Positions 3,814 through 21,754 are shown, counted from the first letter of the stretch. The stretch: DNA of 32,000 nt from Acaryochloris marina S15 (GCF_018336915.1 NZ_CP064927.1:60001-92000), one strand, 5' to 3'. The notes: generated by a model from the letters alone, not told the origin. Numbers and translations: made by a program.

Positions 3814-5188
3814 GTTAGTGTCCTGATTTATTCACGATGCTTTTTGAAGCGATCATGCTTGGCATGATCCCTACGAGAGACGAGGAAGAAAATCGCTAAA
3901 CAGCTCTCCTCATTGGGGAAAGCACCAATTTCATCAGCTTTGGTTCGGAATTCCCGGAACAGCCTTTCTAGGGCATTGGAAGTACGAATCAGCGAATGAA
4001 GGGATTCATCAAAATCATAGAAACTCAAGGTCAGGGCAAAATCTTTGATAAAGGTTCTGACCGCATCGGGTTCAAGGTCTGTCCATTTCTGTGCAAACAC
4101 GAGCAACATCACAATCGCTTCTTCCCAGTCTGGCGCTTTATAGATAGCATAGGCATCGTGTTTAATTTGTGAATATCGCAGCTTCTTGGCTTCAGAGTGG
4201 GACAGTTCTTGTCCTTGAGCATCCAGGTGTGGCAATTGCTCATATCCCAAATGCCGGAGCATCGCTCGAACCTTATGAGTAATGCATCGCTGATGTTGTG
4301 CGAGGGGAAACAGAGCACGAATCACCTTAGGCAACCCAGTCGTGCCATCACTGACAATCAATTTCACCGAATAGGGTTGCAATCCCCGTTGCCACAGATG
4401 CGCAAAGAACAGTAACCAAGCTGCCTCCGATTCTTGCGTCGCCATTTCATAATGAAGCACCGTTTGGGTGCCATCGGGCCACACTGCCATAGCGACTAGA
4501 ATGACTCGGTCTTCCGCATGACGTAGTTTCCGGATATGCCCAGCTTGGTCTTCCCAAAAGTCTTCTGAGGAACACTGAACACTAGCCCAAACACCATCGA
4601 CAATCAGAATAGGAGGGGTTTCCTCAAGACGAGTCTGACGGCTTTGAAACATTTGCTTCTGAGCTTTTAGCGTAATTCGGTTAATGGCATTAACGGATAA
4701 GACTGCTCCTAGAATCTCATAGAGAGCTTCTTGCAGATCCCGAAGCGATAACCCCATAACGTACAAGCCGAGGCAAAAATCGAGGAGACTACCGAGAGCT
4801 CGTTGGTAACGTTCTAAAATCTGCCACTCTCGGTCTGCATTCCCTTTCCGTAGCTTAGGGACAGACAGCTGAGCAATACGGCCGTATTGAGTATCGAGGA
4901 CCCGTTGATAGTAGCCTGAACGTCGAGGTCGATCCCCTTGAACCTCTGATAGATAAGCTTGAACTTCTTCGTCTAGTGCTGACTCTACTGCGTTCTGGGT
5001 GACTCGGTTTGCTTCAAGGCGAAGGGTTGCTTCTAGGGCTTTGTTAATAGAGGCATAGGAACTTTGAGACTGAATACGGATAATCCGCTGCTCGCGTTGG
5101 GCAATGTTCATCAAGGAATGCTCTGAATTATCTATTACCAAAGCATTTCAGCTATCTCAGCTCATGGCGAATAAATCGGGACACTAAC
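3814..5188 (-). mobile_element. IS256-family insertion sequence, apparently intact (1375 bp)
   Basis: Terminal inverted repeats are GTTAGTGTCCTGATTTATTCACG (3814-3836) and the reverse complement GTTAGTGTCCCGATTTATTCGCC (5166-5188). They enclose a single 437-aa transposase ORF. Confidence 0.85.
3828..5141 (-). CDS. IS256-family (Mutator-type) transposase
   Basis: 437-aa ORF with TTG at 5141; the first ATG at 5111 gives MNIAQREQ. It has a typical IS256 layout with ...ILIVDGVWASV... (D1), ...KLIVSDGTTGLPKVI... (D2), QRCITHKVRA and a C-terminal SLIRTSNALERLFREFRTKAD motif. Confidence 0.9.
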   Translation of the reverse strand: MVIDNSEHSLMNIAQREQRIIRIQSQSSYASINKALEATLRLEANRVTQNAVESALDEEVQAYLSEVQGDRPRRSGYYQRVLDTQYGRIAQLSVPKLRKGNADREWQILERYQRALGSLLDFCLGLYVMGLSLRDLQEALYEILGAVLSVNAINRITLKAQKQMFQSRQTRLEETPPILIVDGVWASVQCSSEDFWEDQAGHIRKLRHAEDRVILVAMAVWPDGTQTVLHYEMATQESEAAWLLFFAHLWQRGLQPYSVKLIVSDGTTGLPKVIRALFPLAQHQRCITHKVRAMLRHLGYEQLPHLDAQGQELSHSEAKKLRYSQIKHDAYAIYKAPDWEEAIVMLLVFAQKWTDLEPDAVRTFIKDFALTLSFYDFDESLHSLIRTSNALERLFREFRTKADEIGAFPNEESCLAIFFLVSRRDHAKHDRFKKHRE

Positions 5189-5656
5189 AAATAACAAGTA
5201 TTGCGATCAGGTACTCCATACCAGTATGAGAAAAAAATATCCTGGGAGTCGGACCAAATCTTGGTAGTCTCCCGGTCCACACTTATCTTGATCTATTGAT
5301 GTCTCAAACTTTCTCAGCTAATCGACGCAGATTTTTAGTCTTGTTGAAATATACGGGATTAGGAACTCTAGGTTCAGTGATCGCTCACTCTCTTCATTCT
5401 TGTGAAGATATAACTACCCGTCCTTTACCCACATTTTTCCCAGAGTTATTGCCGACTAATGAAATTTTCACGGTTGATGCAAAGGGTAGAATTATCCATC
5501 GGCGTTCACTCCCCCAACTGCAGATTCTCAAAGAAGACCTTGGCAGCAACATAACATTAGAGATGGTGTCCATTCCTGGAGGAACTTTTACTATGGGGTC
5601 TCCTTCACATGAGCTAAAAAGATGGGATATTGAAGGCCCCCAACACGAAGTCACTG

Positions 5657-7140
5657 GGCGTAAGCAAAGGATCGGGGATGCATGGCTCAAAGAAAAACGG
5701 GTCAAGGACAATAGATCCTGTACCCGAACCAAAAAACTATCATGACCCTACCATCGCAATTGCTAACCGTGCTAGCCCATGACGAATTTCTAGAACAAAC
5801 TGAAGCACTCAAAGTATCAACCAGCCTGAGTCAGATGGTTTATATCGTTCTGCAAATGGGCTTGTTTCTAGCTCGCTGTCTTCTGGAGGATGAACTCTCA
5901 AGGCGCGCGAAAGCAGTATTTGTATGGCCTGTATGTACTACCTGCGGAACCCGCTTACATTCGAAGGGATGGGAATCTCGTCAGATGCAGACACTGGTAG
6001 GCACTATCTCTTGAAAGCGACGGGTGGGCCGTTGTCCCAAAGGATGTCCAGGCAGTCTGTTGACTCCCCTGGATCAAGCCATTGGGATTGCCCCCTATCA
6101 GCACAGCAGCGAAGAACTGGTGCGTCTGGGCTGCTTGTTGAGTCTGTTCATGCCCTATGAACTGGCCAGTTGGATGCTGGGTCAGTGGAGTGGTCTATCC
6201 GTGAGTCCATCCAGTTTGTGGAACTGGGTGCAATCCGTGGGTAACAAAGCTCAGCAGGAATTAGAAGCTCAACTCAACGCTCAATCATCAGGGACTCAGG
6301 CCCCTTGTGAAGCGATTTCAGAGATGTTATCTGCTCTACCTTTGGCCATTGCCGCCGATGGTGTGATGGTCCCCTTTCGCCCCACCCCGAACTCACCCAA
6401 GGGAAAAATCCAGTGGCGAGAAGTCAAAGTCGCCATCTTAGCTCGCCTGGGAACACGGGTTACCCGAGCTAAAAAGGAGGTCCCCCAATTACTGCGTCGA
6501 AGACTGGTGGCAGTATTGGGCGATATCGACCAGTTCATCCCTTTACTTCAACTCGAAGCTCACAAACAAGACTTTGAATCTGCTCCAAAAGTCATCTGGC
6601 TCAGTGATGGGGGACGAGGCTTCTGGCGAGTCTATCGCACCTTGTTCTCTCATTGTGCTGTGGCAGTCCTCGACTTTTTTCATTCAGCAGGCCATCTGGC
6701 ACGAGCAACTAAAGCGATGTTTGGAGATGCCCGCTCTGCTCAAGCCCAAGCCTGGTTCCGGCACTGGCGACACCAATTGCGACACGGGCAACACCTACTT
6801 GTATTACGGTCCTTGACGATATTGATTCACTCACAACTGTTAACGGGAAAGTCTTTTTCAACGTTGCTCCAGGTGCAGGCTTATTTCCAACGCCATCATA
6901 ACCACATCCGTTATCGGCACTTTGAACAGCAACAGATTCCTCTCGGGTCAGGAATGGTTGAAAGTGCATGCAAGTGGTTGATTCAGCAGCGCTTTAAGGG
7001 AGTTGGCATGCGCTGGAGTGAGGATGGTTTCAACCATTTACTGATCTTGAGAATTGCCTGGGTCAATGAACGGTTTGACTCCTTATTCCCAGAGGTGACC
7101 ATTCCGAAAACTAAGGCATCCCCGATCCGCTAAATACGCC
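5657..7140 (+). mobile_element. ISKra4-like insertion sequence (1484 bp) inside the FGE-sulfatase gene
   Basis: Imperfect terminal inverted repeats are GGCGTAAGCAAAGGATCGGGG (5657-5677) and the reverse complement GGCGTATTTAGCGGATCGGGG (7120-7140). The flanking direct repeat is CGAAGTCACTG (5646-5656 / 7141-7151), and there is a single transposase frame inside. Confidence 0.8.
5742..7133 (+). pseudogene. DDE transposase (ISKra4-like) with one in-frame TGA
   Basis: ORFs 5742-6014 and 6024-7133 are in the same frame and are separated only by TGA at 6012-6014 (..LVGTIS*KRRVGRCPKGC..). Motifs present: CTTCG...C..GC zinc-like N-terminus, AADGVMVPF...WREVKV, WLSDGGRGFW, and GSGMVESACKWLIQQRFKGVGMRWS. 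The family assignment is from memory of this motif pattern. Confidence 0.7.
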
Positions 7141-7918
7141 CGAAGTCACTGTTCCCTCGTTTTACCTGGGCAGATATCCAGTGACCCAGGCCCAGTGGAA
7201 AGCCATCATGAGGACTAACCCTTCTAACTCTAAAGGTGCTAATCGGCCTGTAGAGCGGGTTTCTTGGAATGATGCCACTGAATTCTGCCAAAAGCTCTCT
7301 CAGAAAAGCGGTAAACTCTATCGGCTGCCAAGTGAAGCAGAATGGGAATATGCTTGTCGAGCTGGAACAATCACTCCTTTCCATTGTGGTGAGACCATCA
7401 CCCTAGATTTAGCGAATTACTACCCTTCTAGAGGTTATGCCTCTGGCCCAAAAGGACACTCTCTGAAAACGACCACAGACGTCGGCAGATTTCCCCCTAA
7501 TGCCTTTGGTTTACATGACATGCATGGAAATGTAACTGAATGGTGTCAAGATACTTTGCATAAAAACTATGAAGGTGCCCCCACTGATGGAAGTGCTTGG
7601 GAGGATAACTATTACTACGAAAGAATGCGGAGAGGAGGCTCCTGGCTCAGCAACTCGGATGGCTGCCGTTCAGCAACTCGCTCTTGGCTCAAACCATACG
7701 ATAGTGAAAACAACACCATTGGCTTTCGGGTTGCCTTAGTCGCATCCTAAGAATTCCGTTTGAAATTCATGAGCTTAGTTTTGAGGCAGCATTTGAGCTA
7801 AAAGATACGTTTGATGTGTCACAGGTGGTCGAGTTGCCGACTGGAGCGGATAGAGCGTATTGATGAGATGGTTTTGGTGTACCTGAATCGATAGAGAGTG
7901 GCGAGGTTTGAGGGGTGA

Positions 7919-8580: not shown

Positions 8581-8751
8581 ATGCAGGGAACGATCCGCAC
8601 CTATACGGCCTATACTCTCAACGCTTTCAAAGAGATGGCAACGGCCAACGTCGATAAGGTCACTTTGGAGTTTGGGGTCAAAGTCGCTGGCGAGGGGAGA
8701 GTGCCCTACATCACCAAGGGCAGCGGTGAATGCAACCTCAAAATACTGTGG
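8581..8751 (+). pseudogene. relic of a small trypsin-co-occurring-domain (CU044_2847-like) protein
   Basis: DKVTLEFGVKVAGEGRVPYITKGSGECNLKILW fits the C-terminal pattern (V/L)EFG(L/V)x(L/V)..E.........N.K(V/I)...W that I recall for this family. The N-terminal ~45 aa are missing (TGA at 8560). The frame then continues for 95 low-information codons to 9042 across a HIP1 site. Confidence 0.3.
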
Positions 8752-9015
8752 AGTGTTCCTTTCCTGATCGGGAGGGTTGAAAAGTTTCTCCTGCCCCCTC
8801 AACAACTGACCACGAGCATCTCAGCCCAACATGTCGTATACCTACCTGGGCGATCGCCACTTGGATTGCATTCACCAGGTCCGCTCTACCCCCGACGCCG
8901 CAATCTCCAGCGTCCCTCACCCGAATCGTCTATTGCCTTCGCCCATGATCGACATCATGCGTTCTTTGCTTCTCCCAGTGACGATCTCAAGGTTTTCCCT
9001 TTCTTGCTTTGCAAA

Positions 9016-9810
9016 TTACTCAAGAGCTTCAATTTCTGTTAAGACCTGATTAATTAATTTAGTTAGCGAAGGAATTTTTTTTAGAAGCACTGCCTTTTTT
9101 GAATCAGAAGGTACATTCATATTGGCTTGTTTCCAATAAAGCAGATCTTTCTCAATCCTCTTTAGTCTCTTGGTTTCAGCAGTTAATACGACATTTGTCG
9201 TATTTTTATTTTGATGATCACTCAAATATCGTTGAATTGTCCTGGTATGTTTACCAATAATCACCTCCAATGCAGGTAATAAAGCCTTTTTCCCTTTTCT
9301 GGGTCTACCTTTACCATGGCTATATCCTGCGTTCTTAAGACGTTCAGCTAGGCTCTTCACTTCTGTAGGAGTATAGTCGCGCCTATGCTCATTTTCAGCT
9401 ACCTCACATTGCAAAGCCTTTTCAGGATCAACATCTGCATCAAAAGGCATCACCCGAACAGGTATCTTATAACTAGGGAACTGCTCCTCGAAATTGTCTT
9501 GCTTGTTCTCACGTAGAAAATTGATGGCAGCTAAGCGATGGCCTCCTGCCAACAATCTATTCTTTGTATCCACTACTAGCGGCTCGATTAATCCCAATAC
9601 TTGAATTGATTCGGATAGAGCTAACACATGTTCTTGATTTAATTCCCGTGTGTCTTCAGTTCGATATTTTATCTGTTCTAAATGAAGTAATGTTTTTGAA
9701 GGACGGTTAGCATCAGACTCATTTGATACGGCTTGATCTATTACTGACATATCATCAGCAACGTTTAGTGCCTGCTTAAAACGTTTAGAGTTAGTTTTTC
9801 GTCTAACCAT
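9016..9810 (-). CDS. parB: ParB/Spo0J-family partition protein
   Basis: ParB N-terminal domain motif LGLIEPLVVDTKNRLLAGGHRLAAINFL, with an HTH-like GKHTRTIQRYLSD further on. ATG at 9810 overlaps the parA stop by 8 nt (ATGGTTAG). The track ORF starts at a TTG at 9831. Confidence 0.85.
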   Translation of the reverse strand: MVRRKTNSKRFKQALNVADDMSVIDQAVSNESDANRPSKTLLHLEQIKYRTEDTRELNQEHVLALSESIQVLGLIEPLVVDTKNRLLAGGHRLAAINFLRENKQDNFEEQFPSYKIPVRVMPFDADVDPEKALQCEVAENEHRRDYTPTEVKSLAERLKNAGYSHGKGRPRKGKKALLPALEVIIGKHTRTIQRYLSDHQNKNTTNVVLTAETKRLKRIEKDLLYWKQANMNVPSDSKKAVLLKKIPSLTKLINQVLTEIEALE

Positions 9811-13906: not shown

Positions 13907-16900
13907 ATGACGAGTCCGAGCCCAGAACAGCAAACCATTCTATTCCTTGCCAGCAACCCAGATGGATTGCGTCAACTCGGACGAGAATTACGTGACATTA
14001 AAAACGGGTTACGCAGATCTGAGCATCGAGATCAGTTCACTCTATGTCCCTGCCTGGATGTGCGTACTATAGATATTCAACGGGCATTACTGGATGAAAC
14101 TCCTCAGATTATTCACTTTGCTGGCAGTGGCAAAGGAGAAGCAGGACTCGTCTTTGAAGATCAAGCGGGCAATCCCAAACTCGTCACGGGTGCAGCCCTA
14201 GCAGGGCTCTTTGAATTGTTTGCTGAGTACATCCACTGCGTCATTCTGAATGGATGCTATTCCCAGGTGCAAGCTCAAGCCATCGCTCAACATATTGATT
14301 ATGTAGTAGGCATGCAGCAGGCCATTAGCAACGAAGCGGCCCTGGCCTTTGCCGTTGGGTTCTACGATGCCTTGGGTGCAGGCCGAGACATTGAATTTGC
14401 CTTTAAGTTGGGATGCAGTGCCATTCAAATCGAGGGCTTACCCGAATCTCTCACCCCAGTGTTGGTCCAAAAATCTAGCCTTCAATCCGCACCCCTCCAA
14501 CCCTTACCCGAACAGCAGACCCATGAAAAACTCTGGAAAGTGCCAGAGTTACCCCCTCACTTTTTACCTCGTCCTCAGACCCTAAAGGCCCTAAGAGAGA
14601 AGGTCCTTACGGATCTAGCCCAGCCTGTAGTCATGACCGGGCAACGCATCGGTGTTCAGGGTATGGGGGGCATTGGCAAGTCGGTGTTGGCCACAGCCCT
14701 AGCTCGTGACCCTCAAGTTCAATCGGCATTCCCTGACGGTATTTATTGGCTAACCGTGGGGATAGAACCCAACCTACTGGCTCAGCAAATCGATCTAGCA
14801 GCAGCCCTCTGTGGTGAACGCCAGGTATTTGAAGATATCAATGAAGGAAAAACCCGACTCCAAACCCTATGGCAAGGACGCCAAAGTCTATTGATTCTAG
14901 ATGATGTCTGGCGCATCGCGGATGCAGAAGTCTTCAATGTCCTGGGACATCACAGTACCTTGGTAGTGACGACCCGTGACTCAGAATTAATCACAGGATT
15001 AGGGGCCACTGACTTTTCCCTTTCGGTACTCCATGAGGATCAGGCGCTGGAGTTATTAGCCGCCTGGGTGGGCGTCCCCATCTCAGATCTACCCTCCCAA
15101 GCCCAGACAGTAGCAAGAGAATGTGGCAACTTGCCCTTAGCCCTGGCCCAATGTGGCGCAATGGTGCGAGATTTGACCCCTTGGCCCCATGTTCTCAGCG
15201 CCTTACAAGATTCAGATCTTGAATTTATCCAAAAACAGTTTAGTCATTATTCCTACCCCGATGTCTTCAAAGCCCTGCATGTCAGTGCAACGGTCTTAGC
15301 AGCAACCAACCCCATCGCTGCCGAGCGCTATCAAGAACTGGCAGTATTTCCAGCCGATGAATTGATTCCTGAAGCAGTTATTGTTCGCCTATGGCAATAT
15401 ACCGGCGCATTAAAGGAGCGAGATGCGGGCAAAATCCTGACCACCTTATCGAGGAAAGGCATGCTGCGGCTAGAGGGGGACTATCCCCAGCGGCAAGTCA
15501 GCCTCCATGACTTACAGCAGGATTATTTACAAGCCCAGCAAGCCGACCAGAAGGTATTGCATCAGCAACTTCTGGAGGCTTATCACCAGAGCTGTTCAGA
15601 GGGATGGCATTGTGGACCGAAGGACGGGTATTTCTTTGAGCATTTGGCCCATCACCTCCAGCAGGCAGAACGCACCGATGAGTTATGGCAATTACTCTGG
15701 GACTATCGTTGGATTCACCACAAATTGGGCGTCACCGATATCAATGCCCTGCTATTGGACTATGAAACCTTACCCAAGGACAAAGACCTCAACATTGTCC
15801 ACAGTGGGTTGCGGTTATCTAGCCATGTCTTAAATCAGTATCCTGAGCAGCTTCCCAGTCAGCTCTATGGGCGTTTGATGAGTCAAGACTTACCCCATGT
15901 GACCGCTTTGACTCAATCTTTAGCTCAGGGACCGGGAGAGTGCTGGATAAGGTGTCTATTCCCCCATCTCAACCAAGCGGGGGGAGCATTAGTGCGCACC
16001 CTCACCGGACATACTTCCCATGTCACTGGCGTCAGCATCAGCCCCGATGGCCAAACCGTAGTCTCCGCGTCTGGGGACAATACCCTGAAGGTGTGGGACC
16101 TGGAGACGGGCCAGGAGCAGCGCACCCTCACCGGACATACTTCCCATGTCACTGGCGTCAGCATCAGCCCCGATGGCCAAACCGTAGTCTCCGCGTCTAG
16201 TGACCATACCCTGAAGGTGTGGGACCTGGAGACGGGCCAGGAGCAGCGCACCCTCACCGGACATACTAACTTTGTCAATGGCGTCAGCATCAGCCCCGAT
16301 GGCCAAACCGTAGTCTCCGCGTCTAGTGACCATACCCTGAAGGTGTGGGACCTGGAGACGGGCCAGGAGCAGCGCACCCTCACCGGACATACTTTCGCTG
16401 TCGAGGGCGTGAGCATCAGCCCCGATGGCCAAACCCTTGTCTCCGCGTCTAGGGACAAGACCCTGAAGGTGTGGGACCTGGAGACGGGCCAGGAGCAGCG
16501 CACCCTCACCGGACATACTGCCTCTGTCTTTGGCGTCAGCATCAGCCCCGATGGCCAAACCCTTGTCTCCGCGTCTAGTGACCATACCCTGAAGGTGTGG
16601 AACCTGGAGACAGGTCAGGAGCAGTGCACCCTCACCGGACATACTTCCTTTGTCAATGGCGTCAGCATCAGCCCCGATGGCCAAACCCTTGTCTCCGCGT
16701 CTTGGGACAAGACCCTGAAGGTGTGGGACCTGGAGACGGGCCAGGAGCGGCGCACCCTCACTGGACATACTGACTTTGTCGAGGGCGTGAGCATCAGCCC
16801 CGATGGCCAAACCCTTGTCTCCGCGTCTTGGGACAAGACCCTGAAGGTGTGGGACCTGGAGACGGGCCAGGAGCAGCGCACCCTCACCGGACATACTTCC

Positions 16901-17149
16901 ACTGTCAATGGCGTGAGCATCAGCCCCGATGGCCAAACCGTAGTCTCCGCGTCTAATGACAATACCCTGAAGGTGTGGGACCTGGAGATGGGCATGGAAG
17001 TGATGAGCTTCACGGGAGAAGGCGCGTTTCGATGTTGTGAGATTGCCCTAGATGGTCGCACCGTCATTGCTGGAGATTTTGGGGGGCAGCTTTACTTTCT
17101 GCAGCTAGAAGGCCCCAGCTTTTCAGACGGCGGGGAGGTCATCTCATGA
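13907..17149 (+). CDS. STAND NTPase: CHAT-like (caspase-fold) N-domain + NB-ARC + WD40 propeller
   Basis: aa 8-185 have a caspase/CHAT-like layout (ILFLASNP ... IIHFAGSGKG ... CVILNGCYS ... AFAVGFYDALGAG). NB-ARC motifs are GVQGMGGIGKSVLA (P-loop), LLILDDVW, LVVTTRD, CGNLPLAL and SLHDLQQDY. These are followed by 8 near-identical and 1 degenerate WD40 units (GHT..V.GVSISPDGQT.VSAS.D.TLKVWDLETGQE). Confidence 0.9.
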   Translation: MTSPSPEQQTILFLASNPDGLRQLGRELRDIKNGLRRSEHRDQFTLCPCLDVRTIDIQRALLDETPQIIHFAGSGKGEAGLVFEDQAGNPKLVTGAALAGLFELFAEYIHCVILNGCYSQVQAQAIAQHIDYVVGMQQAISNEAALAFAVGFYDALGAGRDIEFAFKLGCSAIQIEGLPESLTPVLVQKSSLQSAPLQPLPEQQTHEKLWKVPELPPHFLPRPQTLKALREKVLTDLAQPVVMTGQRIGVQGMGGIGKSVLATALARDPQVQSAFPDGIYWLTVGIEPNLLAQQIDLAAALCGERQVFEDINEGKTRLQTLWQGRQSLLILDDVWRIADAEVFNVLGHHSTLVVTTRDSELITGLGATDFSLSVLHEDQALELLAAWVGVPISDLPSQAQTVARECGNLPLALAQCGAMVRDLTPWPHVLSALQDSDLEFIQKQFSHYSYPDVFKALHVSATVLAATNPIAAERYQELAVFPADELIPEAVIVRLWQYTGALKERDAGKILTTLSRKGMLRLEGDYPQRQVSLHDLQQDYLQAQQADQKVLHQQLLEAYHQSCSEGWHCGPKDGYFFEHLAHHLQQAERTDELWQLLWDYRWIHHKLGVTDINALLLDYETLPKDKDLNIVHSGLRLSSHVLNQYPEQLPSQLYGRLMSQDLPHVTALTQSLAQGPGECWIRCLFPHLNQAGGALVRTLTGHTSHVTGVSISPDGQTVVSASGDNTLKVWDLETGQEQRTLTGHTSHVTGVSISPDGQTVVSASSDHTLKVWDLETGQEQRTLTGHTNFVNGVSISPDGQTVVSASSDHTLKVWDLETGQEQRTLTGHTFAVEGVSISPDGQTLVSASRDKTLKVWDLETGQEQRTLTGHTASVFGVSISPDGQTLVSASSDHTLKVWNLETGQEQCTLTGHTSFVNGVSISPDGQTLVSASWDKTLKVWDLETGQERRTLTGHTDFVEGVSISPDGQTLVSASWDKTLKVWDLETGQEQRTLTGHTSTVNGVSISPDGQTVVSASNDNTLKVWDLEMGMEVMSFTGEGAFRCCEIALDGRTVIAGDFGGQLYFLQLEGPSFSDGGEVIS
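15995..17002 (+). repeat. 8 x 126-bp near-identical tandem coding repeat (WD40 units); a degenerate 9th unit follows to ~17110
   Basis: CGCACCCTCACCGGACATACT recurs at 15995, 16121, 16247, 16373, 16499, 16625, 16751 and 16877, an exact 126-bp period. Confidence 0.95.
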
Positions 17150-17285
17150 CTTAAATCGTTCTAATATCCCTCCAATTCCTGCCTTAACGTTCGGGGTGTT
17201 CTTTCACAACCGAAGGCTATCGATGTCGCATTTCAATACTTGAACGTTCCACTATCTTTTGCCCGAATTTATCTGCCCTACCCTC

Positions 17286-18383
17286 ATGACTGCCCAAACC
17301 ATTCTCTTTCTCGCTGCAAATCCTAAAGATACTCAGCCTCTTCGATTGGATCAGGAGTTAAGGGATATTGGTGAGGGTTTACAGCGGGCTCAACATCGAG
17401 ATGAGTTTAAGCTTGAACAGCGACTGGCGGTTCGCCCCCATGATATTCAGCGGGCCATGCTAGATCTGAATCCCCAGATCGTTCATTTCTCAGGCCATGG
17501 GAATGGGGATGAGGGCTTGGCCTTTGAGGATGTCAGTGGCAACACCCAGTTGGTCAGTGGTGAGGCGATTGCAGACCTGTTTAACCTGTTTGCCGATCAA
17601 CTGCGCTGCGTAGTCCTCAATGGCTGCTATACCGAGGTGCAAGCAAAGGCCATCTCAGAACATATTCCCTATGTGATCGGGATGAAACGGGCGATTGGGG
17701 ATAAAGCGGCGATCTCCTTTGCCGTGGGATTCTATGATGCCCTGGGGTCAGGACGAGATGTGGAGTTTGCCTTCAAGTTGGGCTGCACCGCCATTCGTAT
17801 GGAAGGCATTGAAGAACATCTCACTCCCGTTCTGATTAAAAAGCCCATTACAGAGGAAACTAAGGATCAGGATCAACCCAAGGCTCAAGCTCGTCCAACA
17901 CCTACGCCTTCTCCCATGACTCCAAACGCCGATGCCCCCTTAGAGGTCTTTATTTCCTATTCCCATAAAGACGATGATTTGCGAGAAGAGTTAGACATCC
18001 ATCTCTCCAATCTGAAACGACAGGGGAAAATTGCTGCTTGGCATGATCGGGCGATTGAAGCAGGGGAAGAATGGGAAACCCAAATCAAAGGCCATCTGGA
18101 GTCCGCTCAAATCATTCTGCTACTGGTCAGCCCACCCTTTATGGCCTCTAACTATTGCTATGACATTGAGATGCAACGAGCGATAGACCGCCATAACGAA
18201 GGCACAGCCCGAGTCATCCCTATTATTCTGCGTCCCTGTGACTGGAAAGGGTCACCCTTCAGTAAGCTTCAGGTACTCCCTAAAGATGCCAAGCCCGTGA
18301 CGAAATGGGCTGATCGCGATGAGGCATTTTTGGATGTCGTCAACGGGATACGGAGGGCGGTAGAGACCCCACTAAAAAAGTAG
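17286..18383 (+). CDS. CHAT-like (caspase-fold) N-domain + TIR domain protein
   Basis: ATG 17286 (MTAQTILFLAANPKD) parallels the start of the upstream protein; the track ORF starts at TTG 17259. The N-domain has QIVHFSGHGNG ... CVVLNGCYT. A P/T-rich linker follows. The TIR has LEVFISYSHKDDDLREEL...AAWHDRAIEAGEEW...IILLLVSPPFMASNYCYDIEMQRA. The stop TAG at 18381 comes directly after A_AAA_AAG. Confidence 0.85.
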   Translation: MTAQTILFLAANPKDTQPLRLDQELRDIGEGLQRAQHRDEFKLEQRLAVRPHDIQRAMLDLNPQIVHFSGHGNGDEGLAFEDVSGNTQLVSGEAIADLFNLFADQLRCVVLNGCYTEVQAKAISEHIPYVIGMKRAIGDKAAISFAVGFYDALGSGRDVEFAFKLGCTAIRMEGIEEHLTPVLIKKPITEETKDQDQPKAQARPTPTPSPMTPNADAPLEVFISYSHKDDDLREELDIHLSNLKRQGKIAAWHDRAIEAGEEWETQIKGHLESAQIILLLVSPPFMASNYCYDIEMQRAIDRHNEGTARVIPIILRPCDWKGSPFSKLQVLPKDAKPVTKWADRDEAFLDVVNGIRRAVETPLKK

Positions 18384-18420
18384 ACAACTCTTCGTCAGGG
18401 CACAGTCCACCAACGGAGAG
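18374..18420 (+). promoter_or_regulatory. candidate -1 frameshift site (A_AAA_AAG + 0-frame TAG + downstream hairpin), or the scar of a 1-nt homopolymer deletion
   Basis: The 0-frame codons are CTA AAA AAG TAG. The heptamer at 18374-18380 is in the correct phase. The -1 frame is open from 18323 and reads ...KKVDNSSSG...NLPRSGVVKFVGRDQ into the NB-ARC ORF. CTCTTCG (18388-18394) can pair with CGGAGAG (18414-18420), 7 nt after the heptamer. Confidence 0.4.
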
Positions 18421-18520
18421 TCATCAGGGCCAGGGACCAGAAGCCTCGTCATCTTCCCAGGCAAGTCCCCCTCATAACCTCCCTCGCAGCGGTGTCGTTA
18501 AATTTGTCGGTCGTGACCAA

Positions 18521-20674
18521 ATGCTGCAGGACTTGCACCAGCTCCTCCAAAAGAACAATCCAGTAGCCCTCACTGCATTAGCAGGCATGGGTGGGATCGG
18601 AAAGACTGAACTTGCCCTGCAATATGCCATCTCCCAGCTCGATCAGGGTCAGTACCCTGGAGGACTTTGCTGGCTGCGAGTGAAAGGCCAGGAGCTAGCC
18701 GCCCAAATTATCGAATTTGCCCAGACCAAGTTAGTCCTGACCCTCCCGGATAGACTCGATGAAGACCAACAGGTGAGTTATATCTGGGGGCAATGGCCCA
18801 TCGGAAAGGTGCTGATTATTTTTGATGATGTGATGGACCTTAAGACTGTCCAACCGTACTTACCGCCATCAGATCCACGGTATAAAGTACTGATCACCAC
18901 CCGACAGGATTTAGGTCTATCCGTTCATTCCCTTTCCATTAAAGAACTGAGCGATACGAGTGCCTTATCCCTACTGAGAACCTTAGTTGGAGCCGACCGC
19001 ATTGATGCTCAGCTCGACGATGCCCAAGCCTTATGTGAATGGGTGGGTAAATTGCCCTTGGGACTAGAGTTAGTGGGACGGTATCTAGCCAGAAAGCCAG
19101 ACTGGTCCCTCCAAAAGCTGATCAAGCGACTTGACTCCAAGCGACTGGAAGCCAAAGCCCTGACGACTCCAGCATCAGGAATGACCGCACAGTTTGGGGT
19201 CGCTGCTGCGTTGGAATTAAGCTGGGTAGAGCTGAATGAGGCAGAGCAGGAACTGGCTTGCTTTTTGGGGATGTTTGCGGTTGCTCCTATTCCTTGGACT
19301 TTGGTTGAAGGATGTCTATCCGAACAGGATAAGGATGACTTAGAAGACATCAGAGATGAAGGTTTGAAAGATAGGAACCTACTCAAACGAATAGAACAGA
19401 GTACCTACCAACTCCATCAAATTGTTCAGGAGTTCTTTCGGATTAAGTTGAATGAGGATTCCGAACAGGGGAAATCCCTCAAAGCCGATTATTGCAGAGG
19501 AATGGTTGCAGTTGCTCAGGGTATTGATGACAGTCCAACGCTTGATGTGATTGCCCAGATGAGTGCCAGCATTCCCCATCTAGAGGAACTGATCAACCAG
19601 TGGATTGACCACCTCGGTGATGATCAATTGATTTGGCCCTATGTCGGTATTGGTCGATTTTATGAAGGGCAAGGGAACTATGCATTGGCTTTACCTTGGA
19701 GACAAAAATGCCTGGAACAGACTCAACAAAGATTGGGCACCGAACACCCCGATGTCGCTCTTAGCCTCAATAACCTGGCATTACTCTACGACAACCAAGG
19801 ACGGTATGAGGAGGCAGAACCCCTCTATACACAAGCTTTACAGATGACACAGAAGCTCTTGGGCAACGAACACCTCTCTGTCGCTCTTAGCCTCAATAAC
19901 CTGGCAGGACTCTACGAGAACCAAGGACGGTATGAGGAGGCAGAACCCCTCTATACACAAGCCCTACAAATGAAAAAGAAGCTCTTGGGCAATGAACACC
20001 TCTCTGTCGCTCTTAGCCTCAATAACCTGGCAGGACTCTACGAGAACCAAGGACGGTATGAGGAGGCAGAACCCCTCTATACACAAGCCCTACAAATGAA
20101 AAAGAAGCTCTTGGGCAATGAACACCCCTCTGTCGCAACTAGCCTCAATAACCTGGCAGCACTCTACAAAAACCAAGGACGGTATGAGGAGGCAGAACCC
20201 CTCTATAAACAAGCCCTACAGATGAGACAGAAGCTCTTGGGCAATGAACACCCCGATGTCGCTGGTAGCCTCAATAACCTGGCAGCACTCTACGACAACC
20301 AAGGACGGTATGAGGAGGCAGAACCCCTCTATACACAAGCCTTACAAATGACACAGAAGCTATTGGGCAATGAACACCCCTATGTCGCTCTTAGCCTCAA
20401 TAACCTGGCAGCACTCTACAAAAACCAAGGACGGTATGAGGAGGCAGAACCCCTCTATACACAAGCCTTACAAATGACACAGAAGCTATTGGGCAATGAA
20501 CACCCCTATGTCGCTCTTAGCCTCAATAACCTGGCATTACTCTACAAAAACCAAGGACGGTATGAGGAGGCCAAATCTTATTTAAAGCAAGCACTAAAGA
20601 TAGTAGAGGTCGTCTTGGGTCCAGAGCATCCTTCTACTCGGACCATGCAAAATAACTTAGAGTCCATCCCCTAG
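18521..20674 (+). CDS. STAND NTPase: NB-ARC + TPR array (conserved coding sequence extends upstream to at least 18380 without a start codon)
   Basis: LAGMGGIGKTELA (P-loop), VLIIFDDV, VLITTRQ and VGKLPLGLELVGRYL, then 7 near-identical 42-aa TPR units (LGNEHP.VA.SLNNLA.LY.NQGRYEEAEPLYTQALQM.QKL). The first ATG (18521) cuts off the conserved NLPRSGVVKFVGRDQ segment that precedes the P-loop. Confidence 0.85.
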   Translation: MLQDLHQLLQKNNPVALTALAGMGGIGKTELALQYAISQLDQGQYPGGLCWLRVKGQELAAQIIEFAQTKLVLTLPDRLDEDQQVSYIWGQWPIGKVLIIFDDVMDLKTVQPYLPPSDPRYKVLITTRQDLGLSVHSLSIKELSDTSALSLLRTLVGADRIDAQLDDAQALCEWVGKLPLGLELVGRYLARKPDWSLQKLIKRLDSKRLEAKALTTPASGMTAQFGVAAALELSWVELNEAEQELACFLGMFAVAPIPWTLVEGCLSEQDKDDLEDIRDEGLKDRNLLKRIEQSTYQLHQIVQEFFRIKLNEDSEQGKSLKADYCRGMVAVAQGIDDSPTLDVIAQMSASIPHLEELINQWIDHLGDDQLIWPYVGIGRFYEGQGNYALALPWRQKCLEQTQQRLGTEHPDVALSLNNLALLYDNQGRYEEAEPLYTQALQMTQKLLGNEHLSVALSLNNLAGLYENQGRYEEAEPLYTQALQMKKKLLGNEHLSVALSLNNLAGLYENQGRYEEAEPLYTQALQMKKKLLGNEHPSVATSLNNLAALYKNQGRYEEAEPLYKQALQMRQKLLGNEHPDVAGSLNNLAALYDNQGRYEEAEPLYTQALQMTQKLLGNEHPYVALSLNNLAALYKNQGRYEEAEPLYTQALQMTQKLLGNEHPYVALSLNNLALLYKNQGRYEEAKSYLKQALKIVEVVLGPEHPSTRTMQNNLESIP
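19733..20614 (+). repeat. 7 x 126-bp near-identical tandem coding repeat (TPR units)
   Basis: TTGGGCAA(C/T)GAACACC recurs at 19733, 19859, 19985, 20111, 20237, 20363 and 20489. Units 19859-19984 and 19985-20110 differ at a single nucleotide. Confidence 0.95.
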
Positions 20675-20812: not shown

Positions 20813-21754
20813 TAGCACTACGAAACTGTGTTAGTACTATAAATAGAAGCTATCACTGCAGAAGTATGCCAGCCCCCTATAGTTATGACCTTCGCTGCAA
20901 AGCGATTGCTGCGGTCAAGAATGGAGAACGGAAAGTCGACGTATGCCGGATGTTAAACATCAGTCGGAACACCTTGCACTTATGGATAGCGCGAGAGGAA
21001 TCGACCGGTGATTGTCAGGCCATTACCCACTACCAGCAAGGAGCTCGCCACAAAATTACAGATTGGGAGCGCTTTCGTGAATTTGCTCAAGAGCATGGGG
21101 GAAAGACTCAGGCCCAAATGGCTAAATTATGGGGTGATAATGTCACCCAGCAAAATATCAGTGATGCCTTGAAGAAATTAGGCTTGAGTCGAAAAAAAAG
21201 ACCTATGGCTATCGAGAACGGGATGAAACGCAACGCCAAGCCTTTATAGAGCGGTTACAGACCAAACATCCTCACCAGATAGTCTATGTGGATGAAGCAG
21301 GTATCGATAATCGAGCGGATTATCCCTATGGATATTGCCCCATTGGTCAACGATTCTATGACCTTAAATCAGGCAAGCGGACAGAGCGAGTCAGTTTCAT
21401 TGCTGCGCTCAAAGAGCGACAGTTATTTGCCCCGATGACTTTCGAAGGGTCTTGCAATCGTTTGTTATTTGAGGCGTGGTTACAGCAGAGTCTCCTGCCC
21501 CAGCTGCACCCTGGCGATATTATCGTGATTGATAATGCCAGTTTTCACCATGGACAAAGTATCGAAGAAATCGTAGCTGAAGCAGGGTGTGAGATTTGGT
21601 ATCTACCGAGCTATTCTCCTGATCTCAACAAAATTGAGCGATGGTGGTTTGTATTCAAAAACTGGATGAAGCAGCGATGGGATGAGTTTGACACTTTTCG
21701 TGATTGTGTAGATGCTGCCTTTAAGGAGTGTACTAACGTATTCCCGTAGTGCTA
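20813..21754 (+). mobile_element. IS630-family insertion sequence (942 bp) with TA target duplication
   Basis: Termini are TAGCACTACG...TTAGTAC (20813-) and the reverse complement TAGCACTACG...TTAGTAC (-21754). Each is flanked by TA (20811-12 and 21755-56). A two-frame transposase lies inside. Confidence 0.8.
20866..21749 (+). CDS. IS630-family transposase, expressed via a -1 frameshift at an A8 run (orfA 20866-21249, orfB frame to 21749)
   Basis: orfA is an HTH (MPAPYSYDLRCKAIAAVKNGE...LNISRNTLHLWI). After CGA AAA AAA A (A-run 21192-21199) the -1 frame reads KTYGYRERDETQRQAFIERLQ...VYVDEAGID...VIDNASFHH...LPSYSPDLNKIERWW, a DDE_3 domain with the D,D,D/E triad. Confidence 0.8.

Follow-up and report, generated by a model that had tools for sequence, protein, structure and literature searches.

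The locus described here raises the question of whether two abutting open reading frames (ORFs) represent two genes or a single recoded one. They lie between positions 17,286 and 20,674 of a 32,000-nt stretch of Acaryochloris marina S15 (NZ_CP064927.1:60001-92000), referred to below as the window, from the first letter of which all coordinates are counted. The first, ORF1, encodes CHAT-like and TIR domains; the second, in the -1 frame, encodes an NB-ARC NTPase followed by a TPR array. The sequence of the junction and its recurrence in other genomes make it very probable that the two are connected by a dnaX/IS3-type programmed -1 ribosomal frameshift site in a cyanobacterial NLR-like conflict gene. 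A first-pass annotation of the window had offered a choice between programmed frameshifting and a recent deletion that split the gene. The former is supported by the recurrent arrangement of heptamer, stop and -1 frame and by a covarying hairpin, which together suggest a selected site.

Organisation of the junction

The features of the site are listed by coordinates and strand.

17286..18383, + strand: ORF1, 0 frame, CHAT-like and TIR domains, 365 aa (41 kDa), ending ...AVETPLKK before TAG; predicted short product of normal termination (translation, Pfam)
18352..18357, + strand: Shine-Dalgarno (SD)-like hexamer GGAGGG, 16 nt 5' of the heptamer; possible 5' stimulator, confined to the Acaryochloris/L005/L008 subgroup
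18374..18380, + strand: slippery heptamer A_AAA_AAG in the 0 frame (direct reading, script); invariant and in the same phase in 20/20 other loci
18381..18383, + strand: 0-frame stop TAG directly 3' of the heptamer (direct reading)
18387..18421, + strand: predicted stimulatory stem-loop, with a 9-bp stem (18387-18395/18413-18421) and an inner 4-bp stem (18398-18401/18405-18408) (RNAfold, RNAalifold)
18380..20674, + strand: -1 ORF after the slip, comprising a 35-aa low-complexity linker, the motif NLPRSGVVKFVGR, the NB-ARC NTPase and the TPR array; 764 aa and stop (translation, Pfam)
18521..18523, + strand: first ATG of the -1 frame, lineage-specific (ACG in L001-L004); the start that an automatic annotator would choose
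18584..18607, + strand: Walker A/P-loop GMGGIGKT of the NB-ARC domain (direct reading, translation, Pfam)

ORF1 starts at ATG 17286 and its 3' end reads CCA CTA AAA AAG TAG. Both this ending and the presence of a dnaX-type heptamer in phase with ORF1, as given in the first-pass annotation, were confirmed by direct reading and with a script. A_AAA_AAG conforms to the X_XXY_YYZ pattern of slippery heptamers in the 0 frame. ORF1 has the signature of a TIR fold (PF13676, TIR_2, E=1e-16; PF01582, E=4.6e-7). The CHAT assignment is a partial Pfam match only, covering profile positions 85-255 of 289 (E=1.6e-9), and the protein carries caspase-type SGHG and NGC motifs.

A TGA at 18320-18322 closes the -1 frame upstream; its open stretch runs from 18323 to 20674. 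From 18380 it encodes VDNSSSGHSPPTESHQGQGPEASSSSQASPPHNLPRSGVVKFVGRDQMLQDL and then the Walker A motif GMGGIGKT. Pfam matches to NB-ARC (PF00931, E=4e-15), TPR_12 (E=5e-135) and TPR_10 place a repeat array after the Walker A motif, the order characteristic of STAND/NB-ARC proteins. No ATG, GTG, TTG or CTG occurs among the 66 -1-frame codons between 18323 and 18520, and the sole near-cognate start before 18521 is an ATT at 18326, 5' of the slip site. The earlier description of a frame open from 18323, without a start until 18521, and running through a linker into the P-loop region held on direct reading and by script. A -1 slip had been proposed to give a CHAT-like/TIR/NB-ARC/TPR protein of approximately 1100 aa; the predicted fusion was computed at 1129 aa (126 kDa), its domains agreeing with Pfam, and its junction would read ...TPLKK followed by VDNSSSGHSPPTESHQGQGPEASSSSQASPPHNLPR (...PLKK-VDNSSSGH...). 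A promoter and terminator scan found neither promoter-like nor terminator-like sites between ORF1 and the -1 ORF.

Recurrence in orthologous loci

A megablast search against plasmids identified four close loci (L001-L004), on plasmids pMB04 and pMB06 of Acaryochloris sp. 'Moss Beach' and pREB7 and pREB8 of A. marina MBIC11017. The five Acaryochloris-type loci, the window included, share 88-93% nucleotide identity, and L001-L004 each have a separately annotated 1098-nt 'TIR domain-containing protein' gene. In MBIC11017 the two ORF pairs bear the locus tags AM1_RS36240/36235 and AM1_RS37125/37120. AAAAAAG TAG is kept in all four, with a varied preceding codon (CTA, ACA or CCA). Further loci were collected through protein-guided scans (one genome per species; metagenomes) and through TIR proteins ending in KK. 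The same junction was present in L005, L006, L008, L013, L017, L019, L090, L092 and L093, in L166, L167, L169, L170 and L171 (the last two from Brasilonema, complete chromosome) and, with a later stop, in L172 and L173.

The 20 further loci derive from Acaryochloris, Stenomitos, Brasilonema, Leptolyngbyales, Elainellaceae and metagenomes. In each of them A_AAA_AAG is in phase and is followed by a stop 0-5 codons later and by a hairpin that begins approximately 6 nt after the heptamer. The stop, TAG or TAA, is adjacent to the heptamer in 19 loci including the window and is displaced four codons downstream in L173 and five in L172. A long -1 ORF follows in every further locus except the decayed copy L092, and wherever the junction retains a downstream module, that module is encoded in the -1 frame. 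These ORFs encode seven kinds of module: NB-ARC-TPR, NB-ARC-WD40, AAA_16-TPR, a 300-aa AAA_16/nSTAND-like ATPase, iSTAND, nSTAND3-TPR and a helical domain of 290 aa; six of the seven are P-loop/STAND-type NTPases. The alignment of orthologous loci that the first-pass annotation had recommended thus found A6 and the stop conserved in all 20, with A7, in frame, noted in L016 alone. Among the 120 closest TIR protein clusters of a large protein collection, all of which are of 261 aa or less, 27 end exactly in ...KK and 11 more end no more than six residues after KK.

The hexamer GGAGGG is identical in the five close loci and takes the form AGGAGG or AGGAGGG in L005 and L008. It was considered as a general stimulator in the manner of dnaX and rejected, distant loci being without such an element.

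The downstream hairpin

A hairpin of 7-8 bp, beginning 7 nt after the heptamer, had been described in the first pass. The hairpin itself was recovered and its dimensions were revised: the stem in the window has 9 bp, including one G-U pair, and is separated from the heptamer by 6 nt, which lies within the spacing of about 5-9 nt expected of a stimulatory 3' structure. The RNAalifold consensus of 14 loci is a 9-bp stem with at least one double compensatory change at each of the nine pairs. Stem cells were paired in 92% of cases, compared with 40-54% when the 3' arm was slid by 1-3 columns, and none of 500 shuffles matched the observed value. In most loci the 45 nt that follow the stop rank near the top for stability among local segments of that length (Fisher p=5e-6, eight lineages); 2.4% of local 45-nt segments are as stable as the hairpin of the window. 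The covariation and local-rank tests were relied upon because the folding statistics of single sequences are weak, and chance is excluded on account of the comparison with other loci and not by the window taken by itself.

A covariance model of heptamer plus hairpin, run against 589 kb of related loci, matched only such junctions, together with the A7 variant L016 and relics behind stand-alone genes of Nostoc. No U-run follows the stem. An Rfam scan of positions 17000-19500 (E<=1) returned no known frameshift element and no other RNA family.

Selection on the two frames and on the heptamer

Values of dN/dS were 0.16-0.19 for ORF1 (TIR) and 0.15-0.28 for the NTPase domain of the -1 ORF; both ORFs are maintained by purifying selection. 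Relative to L005, dS exceeds 2.5 and is saturated, and the junction is nonetheless intact. Over the 36 codons from NLPRSG to the P-loop, 5' of any ATG, the differences amount to 17/82 nonsynonymous against 22/25 synonymous. The sequence upstream of ATG 18521 is protein-coding, its motif NLPRSGVVKFVGR being identical in the in-frame homologues P0005 and P0006.

Nucleotide conservation of the heptamer exceeds the needs of the protein. When the final 140 TIR codons were compared across ten lineages (L092, which has an in-frame stop, was left out of the codon comparison), the amino acid was invariant, and its codons degenerate, in 55 columns. A single codon is used in just five of the 55, and the AAA and AAG of the heptamer are two of these. 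The codon before the heptamer encodes L, T, P, I, S or A and its third base is always A, against a frequency of A at comparable third positions of 15%. The chance of NNA AAA AAG is approximately 0.034 per lineage; because the lineages share ancestry, multiplying such probabilities gives an upper-bound argument and not an exact p-value.

Alternative explanations

The junction could also be read as two ordinary adjacent genes, with the NB-ARC/TPR protein initiated independently at ATG 18521 (elsewhere at TTG, GTG or a near-cognate codon), perhaps through reinitiation after termination. On this view the hairpin would serve for intercistronic regulation or coupling, and the KK codons would be kept for reasons of protein sequence. 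Public annotation keeps the ORFs separate, and in the window the Pfam NB-ARC match begins merely two residues before ATG 18521. That codon is, however, ACG in all four of the closest loci, L001-L004, and NLPRSGVVKFVGR, which lies 5' of it, is identical in the in-frame TIR-NB-ARC-TPR homologues P0005 and P0006 (approximately 55% identity). These align across the junction as ...GIRRAI..(linker)..NLPRSGVVKFVGREQ..., matching the -1 frame of the window upstream of the ATG, in a stretch that is conserved as protein under purifying selection at saturated dS. The possible starts have no positional conservation, the first of them in the -1 frame being spread across loci from -139 to +206 nt from the stop with no shared position. 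In homologues from other Acaryochloris strains the annotated starts do not coincide, and since some of these homologues (P0007 and P0020) begin inside the P-loop itself (MGGIGKT), annotators evidently met no real start; a metagenomic call, P0009, starts with the TIR 3' end as translated in the -1 frame (...GGRDPHKKVEG...). Separate genes would, moreover, leave unexplained a -1 phase fixed over seven kinds of module, a -1 frame open from the heptamer onwards, the choice of AAA-AAG and the A at the preceding third position, and the NB-ARC-TPR group has no start codon in or beside the 3' arm of the hairpin. A conserved GTG within a 'QVP' peptide approximately 50 nt downstream was tried as an alternative start and discarded, as it is GGA in the group of the window and does not account for the fixed frame. 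Independent initiation is accordingly regarded as an unlikely explanation of the junction; the -1 ORF is open from the site, under purifying selection and without a conserved initiation codon.

The remaining alternatives act on the nucleic acid. Stuttering of RNA polymerase that adds an A, or variation between A6 and A7 in the DNA that switches the fusion on and off, would yield the same fusion protein from one added base, and longer runs do occur: A7 in frame in L016, an in-frame A8 in L021 and an A8 at the frame junction of an IS630 transposase in the window. Yet A6 is followed by G, in the same codon phase, in 21/21 loci, and neither property matters to slippage by a polymerase or during replication, which needs longer runs, such as the A9 of Thermus thermophilus dnaX (PMC3711429). 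Because the A6-G and its codon phase are fixed, and because a covarying hairpin 6 nt downstream is a hallmark of ribosomal shifting, slippage by the ribosome is preferred over transcriptional or replicative slippage, to which very little probability is given. It is harder still to sustain that the locus is a pseudogene, in which an A7->A6 mutation broke up an ancestral TIR-NB-ARC-TPR fusion gene, so that no product other than the short one, if even that, has a function. Fused homologues in frame are known (P0005, P0006, P0010 and P0019), and members of the family have decayed (L001, L017 and L092). Nevertheless, the same split is found across lineages with saturated synonymous divergence, the hairpin covaries and loss of the heptamer is confined to copies that have lost the downstream module. 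A dN/dS near 1 and scattered stops were looked for in the -1 ORF and the opposite was found, all 764 aa being open and under purifying selection. The recent A7->A6 deletion put forward in the first pass was rejected on the basis of this divergence and covariation. Its other suspicion, a homopolymer error in sequencing or assembly that conceals a true A7, draws on the susceptibility of A-runs to error on some platforms, and its probability is negligible given that the same A6-G is present in twenty independent assemblies, finished plasmids and a complete chromosome among them (including NC_009932, NC_009933, CP071721, CP071723 and CP030121). The disruption is neither private to one genome nor followed by relaxed selection, as would be expected of a pseudogene or an artefact.

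Several points weigh against programmed frameshifting at this site. Considered alone, the hairpin of the window is only moderately stable (-16.5 kcal/mol, z=-1.2 against shuffles), and an SD-like element upstream of the heptamer was looked for in L013, L017 and L019 and was absent. Many of the loci are metagenome-assembled genomes (MAGs) or metagenomic contigs, and their shared ancestry means that combined probabilities overstate independence. In several other loci a GTG or ATG occurs 30-60 nt past the stop, as two adjacent genes would have it, and in this strain independent initiation at ATG 18521 is still conceivable. L092 (644-1460) has kept the heptamer and a strong hairpin despite a stop inside the TIR domain and deletion of the P-loop, and both L001 (pMB06; 4286-6602) and L017 (a MAG of 2.3x coverage; 1698-2104) have a second frame disruption inside NB-ARC. 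The family is therefore, to judge by these copies, not immune to pseudogenisation; the copy in the window is intact. The window contains no tRNA genes. Decoding of AAG by tRNA-Lys(UUU) alone would favour slippage; a dedicated tRNA-Lys(CUU), if the host has one, would lower slippage on AAG (PMC5009743). That ribosomes do shift here, and how efficiently, we infer from signals in the sequence.

Proposed mechanism

Under programmed frameshifting, ribosomes translating the CHAT-like/TIR ORF would meet A_AAA_AAG with the 9-bp hairpin at the mRNA entrance. Most would presumably terminate at the adjacent UAG and release the free CHAT-like/TIR protein of 365 aa. A fraction would slip back by one base, the Lys tRNAs re-pairing with AAA AAA, and resume decoding at GUA GAC...; translation of the low-complexity linker, the NB-ARC NTPase and then the TPR array would give the 1129-aa fusion. 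A_AAA_AAG is the most shift-prone heptamer in Escherichia coli and the commonest in the IS3 family, and downstream stem-loops are stimulatory (PMC5009743, PMC4066793).

From a single mRNA, free and sensor-tethered effector modules would in this way be supplied in a fixed proportion to each other, a fixed ratio, and the setting of that ratio is the function that we infer for the site. More speculatively, free CHAT-like/TIR subunits could join assemblies for which the ligand-activated fusion, or else the NB-ARC/WD40 protein encoded next to it (described below), acts as the seed, and so amplify TIR signalling; the neighbouring protein, which shares the N-domain, is a possible partner in co-assembly. 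The shift depends upon decoding by tRNA-Lys, and translational stress, or phages that attack tRNA-Lys, might therefore alter the ratio as well.

Relation to known systems

The junction resembles that of E. coli dnaX (tau/gamma) in having the same heptamer and, a few nucleotides beyond it, a stem-loop, at 6 nt in the present case. In dnaX two proteins with a common N-terminus are made in a set ratio from one mRNA (PMC5009743, PMC3711429). It differs in that the shifted product of the window would be the long one, the 0 frame stopping at once, and in that the upstream SD stimulator of dnaX is not conserved, the gene family is unrelated and Rfam gives no frameshift match. The closest topology is that of OrfA/OrfAB in the IS3 family (IS911, IS150, IS3), where a short 0-frame product is accompanied by a long trans-frame fusion. 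A_AAA_AAG is the commonest motif in this family, the ORFs overlap and a 3' structure stimulates shifting (PMC4066793). Unlike those elements, the gene described here is not that of a mobile element, its predicted products are an effector and an effector-NTPase-sensor protein, and its 0-frame stop abuts the heptamer. The G/GT tail chaperones of lambda-type phages are similar in that a conserved -1 shift determines how much of a short protein is made relative to its C-terminally extended form, the two acting together in assembly (PMC5009743); they are viral rather than cellular, have G_GGA_AAG as their heptamer and share no homology with the present genes.

In domain order, from effector to NB-ARC NTPase to repeat sensor, the predicted fusion resembles bacterial STAND/NLR-like proteins (TIR-NB-ARC-TPR, Avs, bNACHT). 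Conflict systems of this kind combine an effector (TIR, caspase-like) with an NTPase and a sensor and are enriched in multicellular cyanobacteria (Kaur et al. 2020, PMC7159879; PMC8195603; PMC13581612). The difference is that effector and NTPase are joined here only via the recoding site, in-frame versions such as P0005 and P0006 existing elsewhere. A further likeness is to NLRs paired with separate effectors, in which a module on the sensor is also found on a free effector encoded nearby (fungal and bacterial amyloid-motif NLRs, 10.1101/2020.01.06.895854; effector-associated domains, PMC7159879). Such a shared module suggests, by analogy only, seeded recruitment; in those pairs the genes are separate, whereas here there would be one frameshifted ORF and the shared module would be the whole CHAT-like/TIR effector.

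Full-text literature, recoding surveys and papers on STAND and TIR proteins yielded no published description of frameshifting in TIR/STAND defence genes. The junction would represent a known class of mechanism in a biologically unexpected place, the testable features of that class at the sequence level being present, apart from the non-obligatory 5' SD-like stimulator, which is restricted to one subgroup. To our knowledge, very few cellular bacterial genes, that is, genes of neither phages nor transposons, have programmed -1 frameshifting. If the prediction is correct, a whole family would be added to them, the first in an NLR-like immune or conflict system, and dozens of pairs of TIR and TPR/NB-ARC genes, the latter with arbitrary or truncated starts, would become single recoded genes. 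It would also provide a testable hypothesis as to how STAND sensors deploy TIR effectors, namely in a fixed free-to-fused ratio from one message, and a compact natural cassette (heptamer, 6-nt spacer and 9-bp hairpin) that functions in cyanobacteria. Programmed frameshifting might even be a general and unnoticed design of bacterial NLR-like immunity, in which a portable TIR-heptamer-hairpin cassette is combined with interchangeable STAND sensors, tethered copies seeding assemblies and free copies extending them; we put this forward tentatively, at somewhat less than even likelihood.

Natural variants

The downstream module has been lost from L086 and L088, where the -1 frame closes after 23 and 12 codons respectively. 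The heptamer is mutated in both, to A_AGG_AAG in L086 and A_AAG_AAG in L088, and the hairpin of L086 has decayed. The stand-alone CHAT-TIR genes of Nostoc and Calothrix (L010-L012) have an earlier stop. In two Nostoc loci, L011 (5074-5134) and L012 (2671-2731), a relic, cAAAAAAGTAGa, is found in the 3' flank approximately 10 nt past the gene's own stop. In L016, on a plasmid of Leptolyngbya sp. Cla-17 (4442-4493), the run is A7 and the TIR frame continues through an intact hairpin into a tail of 78 aa.

Relatives in which the downstream part is in frame include L096 (2974) and L020 (4432), which retain both the in-phase heptamer and, 5-6 nt beyond it, a strong hairpin. The -1 frame is closed by a stop after one codon in L096 and after six in L020. 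The topology would be that of dnaX, with the short isoform as the shifted product, and because the short form would be made by shifting in these two loci, both topologies predict the same pair of isoforms. The in-frame TIR-NTPase relatives L018 (4483) and L021 (5857) have also kept A_AAA_AAG in phase, as A_AAA_AAA in L021; in all four the -1 frame stops within 1-15 codons.

A second junction type

Many TIR ORFs of Chloroflexota, Acidobacteriota, Desulfobacterales and other cyanobacteria end in ...(N/H)P followed by the stop, as C_CCT_TAG or TAA. A hairpin of 9-13 bp, varied in sequence between loci, follows 0-3 nt later (Fisher p ~1e-11 for local stability). Of the 120 nearest TIR protein clusters, approximately 17 have P as their last residue. 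The stops of these C_CCT junctions are at the following positions.

L026:4514, L107:1524, L126:564, L110:2987, L115:826, L157:1210, L144:810
L080:3965, L035:4451, L068:4469, L014:1349, L048:4469, L050:4472

Most of these loci have a long STAND ORF in the -1 frame, reading P-L-A-G-S... and then IWNVPxRRNPxFTGRE; L048 and L050 are without a long -1 ORF. C_CCU is a known shift-prone tetramer (PMC4066793), and the junctions could represent either tetramer-type -1 frameshifting or translational coupling. The latter is a serious rival here, as in several loci the 3' arm of the hairpin contains an ATG or GTG. As a type, C_CCU may be a parallel solution to the A_AAA_AAG cassette. L112 (2915-3046) is an in-frame counterpart of the frameshifted L115 (796-900), with the same CCCTTAGCCGG and the same hairpin; one extra base upstream makes the TIR and the downstream part a single ORF in L112, where a +1 slip on CCC_U would meet TAG immediately.

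Neighbouring genes and repeat arrays

The nearest proteins to those of the window are from Acaryochloris, as determined by protein similarity search. The window encodes ParA, Mutator and IS630 transposases, an integrase, LRR and ankyrin proteins and an XPB-like helicase, and looks like a plasmid or accessory region. Three features adjoin the recoding site or form part of its genes.

13907..17149, + strand: upstream partner gene, CHAT-like N-domain/NB-ARC/WD40, 1080 aa (Pfam NB-ARC, WD40); context, outside the recoding site
15994-16993, + strand: WD40 array of the upstream gene, a 126-nt tandem repeat with 92% matches (repeat detection)
19733..20571, + strand: TPR sensor array of the -1 ORF, a 126-nt tandem repeat of 6.7 copies with 93% matches (repeat detection; Pfam TPR_12, TPR_10)

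The CHAT-like N-domains of the two adjacent STAND genes, compared over 13907-14500 and 17286-17870, share 61% identity over 183 aa. The upstream protein has GSG where ORF1 has GHG; it may have lost the catalytic His and have an adaptor role. The same CHAT-like/NB-ARC/WD40 neighbour is annotated upstream in L001-L004, and in L005 a comparable CHAT and APAF1_C/WD40 neighbour is called as several ORFs (fragmented).

Two units of the TPR array are perfectly identical. The annotated, N-terminally truncated homologues elsewhere range from 653 to 842 aa, a difference that appears to be mainly one of TPR unit number. These features suggest that the sensor repeats, WD40 and TPR alike, turn over rapidly.

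Downstream of the -1 ORF, the IS630-family transposase is split on the + strand into an HTH ORF (20866-21249) and a DDE ORF in the -1 frame (21288-21749). Its junction reads CGA AAA AAA AGA, an A8 run (21192-21199) with A_AAA_AAA in phase, at the point where the -1 frame opens. A split with an A-run is the usual frameshift or transcriptional-slippage arrangement of IS630 elements. Other genes of the kind found in conflict systems lie nearby and encode an FGE-sulfatase domain protein (7181-7750), a Trypco1 (trypsin-co-occurring) protein (8581-9042) and a 439-aa LRR protein (966-2285); an FGE-sulfatase gene is also found near the junction in L172.

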